The notes under the pieces were generated by a model. That model was not told where the DNA came from, searched no databases, and saw only the letters and a list, made by a program, of their open reading frames with translations. Below are positions 7,228 through 10,106 of a stretch of DNA of 10,106 nt, piece by piece. A program made the translations under genes and the position numbers. The DNA is from a virus (lineage: Duplodnaviria; Heunggongvirae; Uroviricota; Caudoviricetes): the IMG/VR virus record IMGVR_UViG_2737471839_000009. One strand, written 5' to 3'. Position 1 is the first letter of the stretch. Every line of letters begins with the position of its first letter.

Positions 7228-9347
7228 AACCAGCCTCCTGATGTTATCCATGGATTATCTTCCGCACGCTCCGTCCGCAGTTTTTTCTTCCGGCGACGGC
7301 GTTTTTCTGCCCCGGCCGTCAGTTCCGGGGATGCCGTTTCACCAGAACGCTCCTGCGGGAAGACGAGCCACGTTTCCCGCTGTGCCCAGTCCGGTGCGGA
7401 GGGCCAGCGGATCTTTTCGTAACCATGCAGAACGGCAAGCGCATCCGCATAAACCAGCAGGTCAAACGCCTCGTTAGCGCCCCTGCCCGGTTTTCGCCAT
7501 TTTCCGTCACTGCCGCGCTCTTCATAGGTCAGCTCATCGTAAAACCACCGCCCCAGCCAGTCGGGAAAGTGGATATAGTTCGGCCCCGGTGTGTCACGCC
7601 ACAGGGCATTATTTACACGGTCCTTAAACGCATCCGTCTGAACCAGCCACAGCGCGACATCGCCACTGGCTCTGGCACGGCGGGCACTTCTGCCGGTATT
7701 ATCCGGGAAGGTACGGTTAATCAGCCTGTCACGGCGAAGACCATCCCCCTTGAACAGAAACACCCTGTTGCCCAGTCCGTCACTCCGGCAACGACGCCAG
7801 AAACGATAGGCGTTATCTGTCACCCCGGCTTCCCCTCCCGTATCCACCGCCATGGCCATCAGACGCATGCGCACATCCGGATCAGAAGCCAGCGGCCATG
7901 TTTTATGGAACACATCCGTCAGCAACAAATCCCAGTCCTCCGGATATGCCGCCGGATCAACCGGCAGACTTTCACCGTTGGGACTGCAGCGCAGTGAATG
8001 CCGGATGTTGTAGCGATCAACAATCCAGCGTTCCCCCTGCTCTCCGTATCCGGTGATCTGCACAACAAAACGGCGATTTTTACCGCCCTGTACGTCAACC
8101 GTTGCCTCAATAAAACGCACACCATCCGGCACAGATCGCCGGGGAAACGGCTCGGCACGCTGTTCAAGCAGTTCACTTTTACGCTGTTCCGTGGCTGAAC
8201 GGGGCAGATAGGGTCGTCCGATATCGGTGTTCACCACCGCTTTCAGGGTCTCTTCACTGCCGGTTCGCTCATACTCTTCTTCTGCCGCCAGCAGTTTAAA
8301 AATCAGTTGTTCCCAGGTCTGAAACGCCGCAGCCGGCCCCTCCATCCAGAATGACGCAATCCGGGAATTTCGTGGCGTTCCGGTGATACTGCCGTCCGCC
8401 GCCGCCCGTTCACCTTCACGAAGCCAGATCCCCTGGTTATTCAGTTCACGTTTCTGTTCCGGAGCAATCAGGCCGCAGCAGTGCGGACACATCAGGCGGG
8501 CCGCCTGCCCGGCAGCCACAAAATCAGGGTTATTCCGGTAACCGGTCATGTTATCCATCACCGGCTGAAAATATTCCCCACAGTGCGGACACGGCCAGTA
8601 CCACCGACGGCGGTCTCCCCGGTTATACAGGGACAGGATCCCCGTTGTTGGGGGTGCCTCATGTGTGCCGCCACATCGCCATTTGGTGTCAGTGATATCC
8701 CGCCCGGGTGAACTCTCGACCAGGGTCATCCCGGAAGACATAAAGGTGGTGGTACGCTTTGATGCCAGGGTGAAGGCATCCCCTTCCCCGTCCACGTTTT
8801 CAGGGAAACGGTCATAATCCGTCAGCGCCACACGACGGTAATCCGAGGAGGAAAATACGGTGATCGACGGCCAGCCAATCTTCAGGAAGGAGCCGTCAAG
8901 AAACATTTTATCGTGGACGTTGTTGTCATTACGGGAAGGACTGAGACGCTTACTGACCTCCGGGCTGTGACGAAACGTTCTGGAAAGACGCGTTCTGGAG
9001 TGTTCCCGCGCCTTGGTCTCGGTCATCTGCACCACCAGCATATCCGCCGGATCACAGATGATGCCGTACACAATCCAGCCATCAATCAGCCCTTCGGTTT
9101 TCCCGGTCCGCGCCGGTCCTACAAACACCACCGCGTCATATTCACGGGCTGATAATGTATTAATGGGGTCAATCATATAGGGCGTCAGTGATGACTCCCA
9201 CGGACCGGAAGTGTTGGCTCCCCGTGGTACCCGCATATAACGCCTGATGGCTTCCGCTACTGGTAACCGGCCAGGTGGGCGAAACAGCGAGGCCACTTCG
9301 CGCCAGATATCGGATGCGCGGCTATGGCTCTCGTTCACCTGATTCAC
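7224..9347 (-). CDS. A: Terminase large subunit (lambda gpA family)
   Basis: 707-aa ORF. N-terminus MNQVNESHS…SLFRP parallels lambda gpA; Walker A-like VFVGPARTGKTEG (about 9093..9119); two CPHC motifs (CPHCGEYF… and …MCPHCCG, about 8475..8591) as in gpA-type terminases. Starts with GTG overlapping the small-subunit stop. Confidence 0.93.
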   Translation of the reverse strand: MNQVNESHSRASDIWREVASLFRPPGRLPVAEAIRRYMRVPRGANTSGPWESSLTPYMIDPINTLSAREYDAVVFVGPARTGKTEGLIDGWIVYGIICDPADMLVVQMTETKAREHSRTRLSRTFRHSPEVSKRLSPSRNDNNVHDKMFLDGSFLKIGWPSITVFSSSDYRRVALTDYDRFPENVDGEGDAFTLASKRTTTFMSSGMTLVESSPGRDITDTKWRCGGTHEAPPTTGILSLYNRGDRRRWYWPCPHCGEYFQPVMDNMTGYRNNPDFVAAGQAARLMCPHCCGLIAPEQKRELNNQGIWLREGERAAADGSITGTPRNSRIASFWMEGPAAAFQTWEQLIFKLLAAEEEYERTGSEETLKAVVNTDIGRPYLPRSATEQRKSELLEQRAEPFPRRSVPDGVRFIEATVDVQGGKNRRFVVQITGYGEQGERWIVDRYNIRHSLRCSPNGESLPVDPAAYPEDWDLLLTDVFHKTWPLASDPDVRMRLMAMAVDTGGEAGVTDNAYRFWRRCRSDGLGNRVFLFKGDGLRRDRLINRTFPDNTGRSARRARASGDVALWLVQTDAFKDRVNNALWRDTPGPNYIHFPDWLGRWFYDELTYEERGSDGKWRKPGRGANEAFDLLVYADALAVLHGYEKIRWPSAPDWAQRETWLVFPQERSGETASPELTAGAEKRRRRKKKLRTERAEDNPWITSGGWL

Positions 9348-9820
9348 ATATCGGCCTCATCACAACAGTCAATGACTGCCTTTTCCAGTGTGTCGCGGAT
9401 CTCATCAACCACAATCTGCACTTCGTTCAGTTGTGATGCAGTCCACCCCCTGTCCCTCTCCAGCCTGTCAGGCCAGGTTTCCAGTACCTGAACTATCGCT
9501 TTCACCACGACAGAAAACGACCGCCTGACATCACTGACAGGGACAAGCTGAACAGTTTCATGCTGAAATTTAAGACGCTCGCGCTCGGACTGATACCATG
9601 CCTTGCGATCGTGTGGATTCATCTCCTCATCTTCGGTGGATGGTGTTTTTGCCAGCAGCGCAGTAATCAGGTCCGTCAGGAGATAAAGTTTTTTCTTCTC
9701 ATTACTGCCCGGAGCAAGAGGAACATCCGCCATTCTTGCGGTAACGGTCTGCCGGTGCAGGCCTGAAAGGGCTGCCAGTTGATTAATATTTAACTTCATA
9801 TTTTTCAGCTCGCCGTCCAT
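9344..9820 (-). CDS. Terminase small subunit (DNA-recognition subunit, Nu1-like role)
   Basis: 158-aa ORF immediately upstream of and overlapping the large terminase. N-terminal helix-turn-helix-like segment LNINQLAALSGLHRQTVTARMADV; strong GGAGGAGG Shine-Dalgarno 5 nt upstream; about 190 bp downstream of the cosN candidate, like lambda Nu1. Confidence 0.8.
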   Translation of the reverse strand: MDGELKNMKLNINQLAALSGLHRQTVTARMADVPLAPGSNEKKKLYLLTDLITALLAKTPSTEDEEMNPHDRKAWYQSERERLKFQHETVQLVPVSDVRRSFSVVVKAIVQVLETWPDRLERDRGWTASQLNEVQIVVDEIRDTLEKAVIDCCDEADM

Positions 9821-10004
9821 CTACGCCTCCTCCACATACCCCTCTGAACAGAAGTGATTCTGTTTTTTTGTAAAGAAATGCCGCCACACAAAGATGTCGA
9901 ACAAAAATTGGCCACAACCATCATCTTTTTTGCATCAATTACATTAAAAACAACAGTTTACATACATGATGATGATGACGATAAAATCACAAAAATGCGC
10001 TTTT
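9821..10004 (-). other. Putative cosB-like terminase-binding region between cosN and the small terminase gene
   Basis: AT-rich about 185-bp non-coding segment with short repeated motifs (plus strand GCCGCCACACA / GGCCACAACCA; CATCATC; (GAT)3-4 run at about 9968..9980) and an ATCAA-containing AT-rich stretch that could be an IHF-type bend site. Assignment is by position relative to cosN and the terminase gene only. Confidence 0.3.
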
Positions 10005-10032
10005 TTCCGCGCCGACCCGCCCCGTGTACAGG
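10005..10032 (-). other. Putative cosN (terminase nicking site / cohesive-end region)
   Basis: Minus-strand sequence …TGTACACGGGGCGGGTCGGCGCGGAAAAAAGCGC… resembles the lambda cos junction …TTACGGGGCGGCGACCTCGCGGGTTTTCGC… as recalled (shared ACGGGGCGG core, then a GC-rich 12-mer, then CGCGG plus a homopolymer tract). Its distance to the small terminase start matches lambda. Confidence 0.45.
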
Positions 10033-10055
10033 CCCACCCCGCCAGGAGGACCCGA

Positions 10056-10078
10056 AAAATGATAATTGTTATCATTTT
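10056..10078. repeat. Perfect 10-bp-arm inverted repeat AAAATGATAA-TTG-TTATCATTTT (operator-like palindrome, Fur-box-like core)
   Basis: Read directly from the sequence. The core TGATAAT-T-GTTATCA matches the 7-1-7 Fur-box form TGATAATnATTATCA at 14 of 15 positions. Confidence 0.6.
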
Positions 10079-10106
10079 GTAATGTGTTCCGGTTTCTTCC
10101 ACCATC

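Follow-up and report, generated by a model that had tools for sequence, protein, structure and literature searches.

The stretch of DNA analysed here (the window; 10,106 nucleotides (nt); IMG/VR record IMGVR_UViG_2737471839_000009, Caudoviricetes) covers the head-gene end of a late operon, encoded on the minus strand, in a lambda-like prophage. It is 100% identical to Escherichia coli 06-00048 (NZ_CP015229.1), the genome that we used to extend the sequence past position 10106. Our analysis of positions 10012-10078 makes it highly probable that this interval forms the cosQ part of a cos site of the lambda type with an adjoining box for the host regulator Fur, that no gene starts there, and that the box is probably regulatory. 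The locus is a further instance of two known elements, the lambda-type cosQ and the cos-adjacent Fur site of the nohA/nohB type; from the sequence comparisons below, the pairing of the two appears to be widespread in phages, absent from the satellite that we examined, and unremarked in the literature examined. A preliminary description of the window had read the same interval as a ribosome-binding site (RBS) and leader peptide feeding into a downstream gene, with a Fur-like palindrome around the leader; of that reading the Fur-like palindrome stands, whereas the RBS, the leader peptide and the downstream gene do not. The elements on which the argument rests are these:

10012-10023, minus strand: predicted cosN cohesive end, 12 nt, 5'-GGGGCGGGTCGG-3', placed by alignment with lambda (register +/-1 nt)
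10047-10053, minus strand: cosQ heptamer GGGTCCT (AGGACCC on the plus strand), with a single occurrence in the window
10056-10078, no strand assigned: Fur-box palindrome with 10-nt arms and a 3-nt centre, recognised by Fur matrix, 7-1-7 motif and position

A lambda-type cos site at the edge of the window

In an alignment of the window, taken as its reverse complement, with the joined ends of lambda, the two rows read AATGATAACAATTATCAT TTTTC GGGTCCT CCTGGCGGGGTGGGCCTGTACAC GGGGCGGGTCGG CGCGG (window) and GATGATAATCATTATCAC TTTAC GGGTCCT TTCCGGTGATCCGACAGGTTACG GGGCGGCGACCT CGCGG (lambda). Around the predicted cohesive end the order is GTACAC / GGGGCGGGTCGG / CGCGG in the window and GTTACG / GGGCGGCGACCT / CGCGG in lambda, and the distances from the cohesive end to cosQ and to CGCGG are identical in the two. 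The heptamer itself and the distance of 23 base pairs (bp) that separates it from the predicted cohesive end are shared by the window, lambda, phi80, N15, Qin and DLP12. Read along the minus strand, the window presents the Fur-box palindrome, 4 nt, cosQ, the 23-bp spacer, the G-rich 12-nt cohesive-end sequence (cosN), about 190 bp equivalent to cosB, the terminase genes and the portal, and Pfam matches identify the genes downstream of cos as those for the small terminase, a large terminase of the gpA family and a portal of the lambda family. The layout in lambda is cosQ-cosN-cosB-terS (PMC4669245), and cosQ is described as a highly conserved 7-bp element that is needed for the nick in the bottom strand of cosN and hence for packaging termination (PMC4669245, PMC4856287). 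The phi80 record labels the 55 bp ahead of its sticky end 'cosQ; aka R4 region'.

The likeness to the cosQ region of lambda, and of phages 21, phi80 and N15, extends to the heptamer GGGTCCT, the 23-bp distance and the gene order cosQ-cosN-cosB-terminases-portal. The cohesive end, however, is GGGGCGGGTCGG in the window as against GGGCGGCGACCT in lambda, and the small terminase belongs to the DUF1441 family rather than to the Nu1 type of lambda, so that cosB and packaging specificity probably differ from those of lambda. In a set of 80 loci retrieved by homology to the large terminase (TerL), with one genome per species, exact copies of GGGTCCT are present upstream of TerL in 39 of the 80, and nearly all of these copies lie directly upstream of cosN-like sequence. 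The loci carrying the heptamer include representatives from Paraburkholderia and Paracoccus, in which TerL identity is just 31-38%.

Many lambda-like TerL loci carry AAAGGTACTCC instead of GGGTCCT at the cosQ position, upstream of cosN-like CCACGGGGCGGCGG; within the individual loci the site falls at about 1740-1910. Loci of this kind are found in Rahnella, Yersinia, Edwardsiella, Proteus, Providencia, Morganella and Pasteurellaceae (L015-L017, L019-L021, L025, L028-L041 and L044-L052), and several of these sites also adjoin a Fur-like box. On sequence grounds, AAAGGTACTCC may represent a second cosQ sequence class.

The palindrome as a Fur box

The core of the palindrome is the 19-mer AATGATAATTGTTATCATT at 10058-10076, the centre of which (10067) is 14 bp from cosQ. 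The inverted repeat that the preliminary description had called perfect at 10056-10078 does have perfect 10-nt arms around a 3-nt centre, but the innermost T/G of the 23-mer is unpaired. As a measure of Fur resemblance we used a symmetric 19-nt matrix derived from 13 independent K-12 sites with experimental support (fhuA, fepD-entS, entC, gpmA, yoeA, ryhB, sodA, fecI, fhuF, cir, exbB, fadD and sufA), from which the nohA and nohB sites were excluded; support for the training sites consists of footprint, gel-shift or other evidence cited in Chen et al. 2007 (PMC2189734). The scan with such a matrix, which the preliminary description had proposed as a check, returns 27.4 bits for 10058-10076, with the next best position in the window scoring 9.2 bits. 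For comparison, the 13 training sites give leave-one-out scores of 18.1-27.6 bits, the maximum in Markov simulations based on the window, the intergenic region and an AT-rich model is 21.0 bits, and the corresponding sites score 21.6 bits in lambda and Qin and 24.7 bits in DLP12. The suggestion of a Fur-box-like core is therefore confirmed, with a score at the upper end of the range for proven E. coli Fur sites.

The 7-1-7 motif TGATAATNATTATCA is matched once, with 1 mismatch, at 10060-10074 (0.00 matches expected from 200 shuffles). The classical Fur 19-mer GATAATGATAATCATTATC has no match in the window within 3 mismatches, its nearest register differing at 4 positions in a hand alignment. 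The resemblance to Fur sites is far beyond chance, and we infer that the palindrome is a high-affinity, operator-type site for host Fur-Fe2+. In comparison with the classical Fur-repressed promoters of fhuA, entC, ryhB and sodA, the 19-bp box of the window is of equal or better quality; it differs in that no overlapping -35 and -10 elements were detected and in lying 247 bp from the nearest gene start.

Correspondence to the nohA and nohB sites of K-12

Two Fur site clusters have been reported in the K-12 genome at 1634624 (nohA, in Qin; 22.3 bits) and 579824 (nohB, in DLP12; 25.3 bits), as scored by the authors' model, the nohB cluster being the third strongest in that genome (PMC2189734). 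The nohA site was shifted in gels with 150 nM Fur and had been recovered earlier by the in vivo selection of Vassinova & Kozyrev 2000, while binding to the nohB site of DLP12 was predicted (PMC2189734). After conversion to current numbering, both published coordinates map exactly 14 bp upstream of cosQ, on the palindrome, and the Qin sequence is identical to that of lambda at the nohA Fur site. The K-12 sites resemble that of the window in location, being centred 14 bp upstream of cosQ and about 235-250 bp ahead of the start of the small terminase gene, and in the common core ATGATAAnnnTTATCAT. They differ from it in the centre itself (TTG in the window, C in lambda and Qin, T in DLP12) and in their flanking DNA, which is unrelated to that of the window; moreover, the K-12 and lambda copies are accompanied by a divergent DUF3950 gene and an FNR site, and the window phage has neither.

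Binding to the FNR site, TTGATGCAGATCAA, upstream of nohA and nohB has been reported both in vivo and in vitro, with promoter fusions being little affected (PMC1802558), and chromatin immunoprecipitation sequencing of FNR gave a peak summit at 1634625 that was attributed to a Fur-repressed operon (PMC3688515). In Qin and DLP12 this site is found about 90 bp beyond the Fur box as seen from cosQ, and the motif is also readable in lambda; a search for an FNR site near the box of the window phage found none. The literature on the nohA and nohB Fur sites does not, in its searchable text, mention cos, and among the cos papers examined neither Fur nor the palindrome is mentioned. Full-text literature searches for Fur boxes in combination with cos or terminase returned nothing relevant.

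Distribution of the box beside cosQ

In the close-relative and species-level sets, we counted as a box any match of at least 16 bits on the Fur matrix. Among 80 IMG/VR loci retrieved with the small terminase protein, the close-relative set, 78 cosQ sites were found and 70 of these have a box, with its centre 13-16 bp from cosQ. At the species level, 20 of the 69 loci with a recognisable cosQ have a match within 45 nt upstream, all of them from Enterobacterales, and the distance to cosQ is 15 bp in 12 of the 20 (range 11-23). Across these 69 loci, matches number 28 in 15,180 nt of cosQ-upstream zones versus 2 in 459,990 nt elsewhere. The reference phages phi80, N15 and lambda score 28.2, 20.0 and 21.6 bits, respectively, and in VT1-Sakai, an Stx1-converting phage, a box of 28.0 bits lies 14 nt from cosQ. 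In an IMG/VR sample chosen solely by the cosQ-plus-cosN pattern, the box is present at 56 of the 73 cos sites that are followed by a gpA-type large terminase and absent from 11 of the 15 that have no large terminase downstream. Dyad symmetry in cos-adjacent boxes averages 6.8 of 9 pairs, equal to the value for host Fur sites (6.8), and it is consequently the Fur consensus, and not a hairpin, that is conserved.

Some prophages have arrays of 2-4 Fur-like boxes of 17-26 bits, about 47-60 nt apart, leading up to cosQ; examples are seen in a Serratia metagenome-assembled genome (L034 1704-1835), Rahnella inusitata (L016 1644-1756) and Scandinavium (L033 1752-1818).

The phage-inducible chromosomal island (PICI) EcCICFT073 depends for its packaging on the lambda or phi80 terminase, and its cloned cos sites enable transfer by both phages (PMC6739421, PMC6092414). 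It has two inverted cos sites which, like that of the window, contain the cosQ heptamer at the same spacing from cosN, both elements being perfect. Neither site, however, has a Fur box (-13.9 and -11.3 bits), and in one of them a GC-rich terminator takes its place, with its end 7 nt ahead of cosQ. These satellite sites are packaged by the same terminases without a box, which is why we regard the box as probably regulatory rather than as a packaging signal; the comparison suggests that packaging as such probably does not need it. In the CFT073 genome, a lambda-like prophage lying about 35 kb from EcCICFT073 has a 21.8-bit box beside cosQ, the only match of at least 16 bits in 50 kb. This prophage, located at icd, also has cargo related to iron, namely a TonB family gene between iss/bor and cos (L181 33655-33981) and sitABCD just past the tail genes (L182 6708-10151).

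Reading frames on the plus strand

The sequence features listed in the preliminary description all exist on the plus strand: AGGAGGA is present at 10044-10050, ATG ATA ATT GTT ATC ATT TTG TAA (MIIVIIL*) at 10059-10082, and an ATG at 10082 that overlaps the stop of this mini open reading frame (ORF) opens a frame beginning MCSGFFHH that continues to the window edge. Two reading frames are involved, neither of which we regard as a gene:

10059-10082, plus strand: 7-codon ORF MIIVIIL*, a by-product of the Fur-box sequence (aATGATAAT...)
10082-10106, plus strand: 25-codon ORF MCSGFFHHRTGQATMRGQRRAPLTQ*, with its stop 53 nt past the window in NZ_CP015229.1

The model built on these features, in which an RBS serves a 7-codon leader coupled by a stop/start overlap to a conversion gene, with the palindrome as operator or RNA hairpin, has several points in its favour in addition to the features themselves. 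The 8-nt spacing of AGGAGGA from the ATG is canonical, the plus-strand RNA folds better than shuffled sequences (z = -3.2), and a small DUF3950 gene (ynfO/ylcI) that points away from cos and starts 156 nt from the box is indeed present in lambda, Qin and DLP12. Nevertheless, AGGAGGA is not a Shine-Dalgarno sequence but the complement of cosQ (GGGTCCT) and its conserved CCTGG flank, an assignment that follows from the identity and spacing of the heptamer, which are shared with lambda-type cos sites; CCAGGAGGACCC occurs at 74 of the 78 cosQ sites of the close-relative set. The supposed downstream gene ends after 25 codons once the sequence is extended, is unannotated and has no Pfam match; such an early stop is an outcome that the preliminary description had itself named as refuting its reading. 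Nor does the setting resemble a prophage end with conversion genes. Past 10106 in NZ_CP015229.1 come genes for a 74-amino-acid hypothetical protein, an Rz-type lysis protein, lysozyme and holin; because these neighbours are lysis genes on the minus strand, the locus is an intergenic position in the middle of the prophage, at the boundary of lysis and head genes, and the nearest plus-strand gene past the window is about 1.8 kb away. In lambda-type phages cos sits between the lysis and head genes.

Conservation of the mini-ORF likewise fails to support a leader peptide. The 7-codon form occurs at just 6 of the 78 cosQ sites, and no record examined annotates it. The frame starting at the palindrome ATG is mostly 40 codons long at these sites and otherwise 8, 10, 29, 30, 38, 41 or more than 65, the 40-codon form of most relatives being due to a T-run past the palindrome that is one base shorter. 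Insertions and deletions in this T-run shift the frame among relatives, and the 40-codon ORF lies in a different frame relative to the downstream sequence. Length and frame thus differ from relative to relative, a coding signature is absent, and an Rfam scan of the extended region with E up to 1 found no family. These comparisons largely refute the model of a leader and downstream gene, to which we would now attach only a minute probability; on the same evidence no plus-strand gene begins at 10059 or 10082.

The 40-codon ORF of most relatives, MIMVIICNVVRFLPPSHRTSDYEGTTPRSVNAVNPGVYRF, starts at the Fur-box ATG behind the cosQ-derived AGGAGGA, spans the window equivalent of 10059 to about 10180 on the plus strand, and is frameshifted in the window. 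We considered it as a real small gene in its own right and ruled this out from its substitution pattern and length variability. Among 20 distinct versions, variable sites are distributed 9/7/9 over codon positions 1/2/3, and the ratio of synonymous to non-synonymous changes is 9:21, as compared with 25% synonymous changes expected from random mutation; neither the variation over codon positions nor the synonymous share points to selection at the protein level. A Pfam search with the long frame across cos gave no match. The 101-codon, GTG-started ORF on the plus strand (window-equivalent 9854-10159), which spans cosB, cosN, cosQ and the Fur box and also has no Pfam match, is almost certainly an artefact, an open frame in non-coding DNA.

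With respect to the DUF3950 gene, we sought a homologue near cos of the window phage and found none, and the gene that precedes the box in N15 and phi80 points towards cos and ends just ahead of the box. The absence of this gene and the orientation in N15 and phi80 speak against the leader model, and they led us to reject the box as operator of a divergent gene as well. The lambda reference record (NC_001416) leaves unannotated an ORF of 64 amino acids at 48109-48303 on the minus strand that matches DUF3950 (Pfam E = 1.9e-20). Its product has the same sequence as K-12 YlcI and almost that of YnfO, and the ORF points away from cos, starting 156 nt from the box. EcCICFT073 also encodes a protein of the YlcI/YnfO family.

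Possible roles of the box

Our working hypothesis is that the box most likely provides regulatory insulation of cos and the terminase genes. By analogy with the lambda literature, the terminase-portal motor moving along a concatemer would need cosQ in order to nick the bottom strand of the next cosN, ending packaging. Host Fur-Fe2+ would sit on the palindrome directly upstream of cos, and bound Fur would limit transcription entering cos and the terminase genes from the lysis/cargo region. Such insulation would act when RNA polymerase lacks the late antiterminator modification (gpQ in lambda), and at cos sites without a box the same slot would be held by an intrinsic terminator. Box-free cos sites often have a GC-rich intrinsic terminator whose end falls 6-7 nt ahead of cosQ, and in 202 distinct contexts we found the box only in 100, a terminator only in 25, both in 7 and neither in 70. 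Terminators occupy this slot in L184, L192, L194, L210, L217, L229, L234, L235, L255, L256, L288, L290 and L303 (19480-19535), GGCCGGAGAAATCCGGCTTTTTTT being one example.

Several observations weigh against reading the locus as a cosQ with a regulatory Fur box. The box is missing from about 70% of the cos loci at species level and from 8 of the 78 close-relative cosQ sites, and is therefore dispensable. The apparent exchange of box and terminator (odds ratio 0.2, p = 1.7e-4) is calculated ignoring kinship, and the near-constant box-to-cosQ distance of 13-16 bp would also fit a role linked to packaging. A consensus scan, which misses weak promoters, found no sigma-70 promoter-like site at the box on either strand, making the box unlike a classical promoter operator. 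Finally, the 7 bp of cosQ, which we take to be exactly GGGTCCT (lambda 48473-48479), are an assumption on our part that fits the comparative data; the exact bases are said to have been given by Wieczorek & Feiss in 2001.

If the palindrome were itself part of the packaging signal, as an extended cosQ or as a pause site or roadblock for the motor, Fur might be an accessory factor in the manner of IHF at cosB, or the resemblance to Fur sites might be incidental. Such a role would suit the location of the box, which the motor meets immediately ahead of cosQ, its tight spacing in both the close-relative and the species-level loci, and its presence in lambda, phi80 and N15, including within the region of the phi80 record labelled as cosQ. 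We nonetheless consider it unlikely, given that both cos sites of EcCICFT073 are without a box though the cloned sites enable transfer by lambda and phi80 (PMC6739421, PMC6092414), that the box is missing from most cos sites with no TerL downstream and from many phage cos sites, that its spacing drifts by 1-3 bp through T-run length among near-identical relatives, and that cosQ is described as only 7 bp (PMC4669245). More improbable still, in our estimation, is that the palindrome and T-run act through structure, as a weak terminator, insulator hairpin or cruciform, with Fur irrelevant. The late strand does read AAAAUGAUAACAAUUAUCAUUUUUC, a hairpin followed by U's, its folding energy of -5.8 kcal/mol is well below that of shuffles (z = -5.7), and the GC-rich terminators of box-free cos sites end in the same place. 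However, the stem is nearly all A-U, with one G-C pair per arm, and falls below terminator scan criteria; the T-run is present, a GC-rich stem is absent, and the promoter/terminator scan makes no intrinsic terminator call at the palindrome. Dyad symmetry matches that of host Fur sites with nothing conserved past the Fur consensus, the variants track Fur-site alternatives such as GAGAAT/ATTCTC, and a generic AT hairpin would not reach 20-30 bits on the Fur matrix in dozens of lineages. Regulatory insulation by Fur accordingly remains the role that we prefer.

Genomic context

The remaining features of the window that bear on the cos assignment are the following:

9821-10007, minus strand: cosB equivalent by position (small-terminase binding region), predicted from the lambda layout and the lambda alignment
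9344-9820, minus strand: small terminase subunit, DUF1441 family (Pfam DUF1441, E = 5.5e-49)
7224-9347, minus strand: gpA-type large terminase (Pfam GpA_ATPase and GpA_nuclease, E about 1e-80)
5513-7015, minus strand: lambda-family portal (Pfam Phage_portal_2, 1e-80)

The small terminase gene, downstream of cos, opens the head/packaging operon, and its homologue in records of Stx2a phages carries the annotation 'phage terminase small subunit'. The late region past the window (10052-12486 of the extended locus) also has a TerB-family gene, genes for tRNA-Gly and tRNA-Thr and, on the opposite strand, a gene for an IraM-like anti-adapter.

Implications

For annotation, the locus demonstrates that two non-coding DNA signals alone can mimic an RBS, an ATG and a stop-start overlap at the edge of a packaging module, and no gene should be called at 10059-10106. 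For the biology of these phages, one of the strongest Fur sites in this DNA stands 14 bp from the packaging-termination signal, which raises the question of whether iron status, via Fur, influences terminase expression or virion production in lambda. If iron status has no such effect, the box would be no more than a passenger conserved in the cos module, and the finding would be ordinary. We tentatively entertain, as a possibility that we would not favour on present evidence, that the box is a functional, conserved accessory of lambda-type cos regions through which host Fur-Fe2+ couples events at cos to iron status. Two candidates for the event so coupled are read-through transcription that reaches the terminase genes in lysogens and the fate of the chromosome end bearing cosQ, which is the end injected first. 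Were this the case, the nohA and nohB entries of the E. coli Fur regulon would be relics of a phage function at cos.

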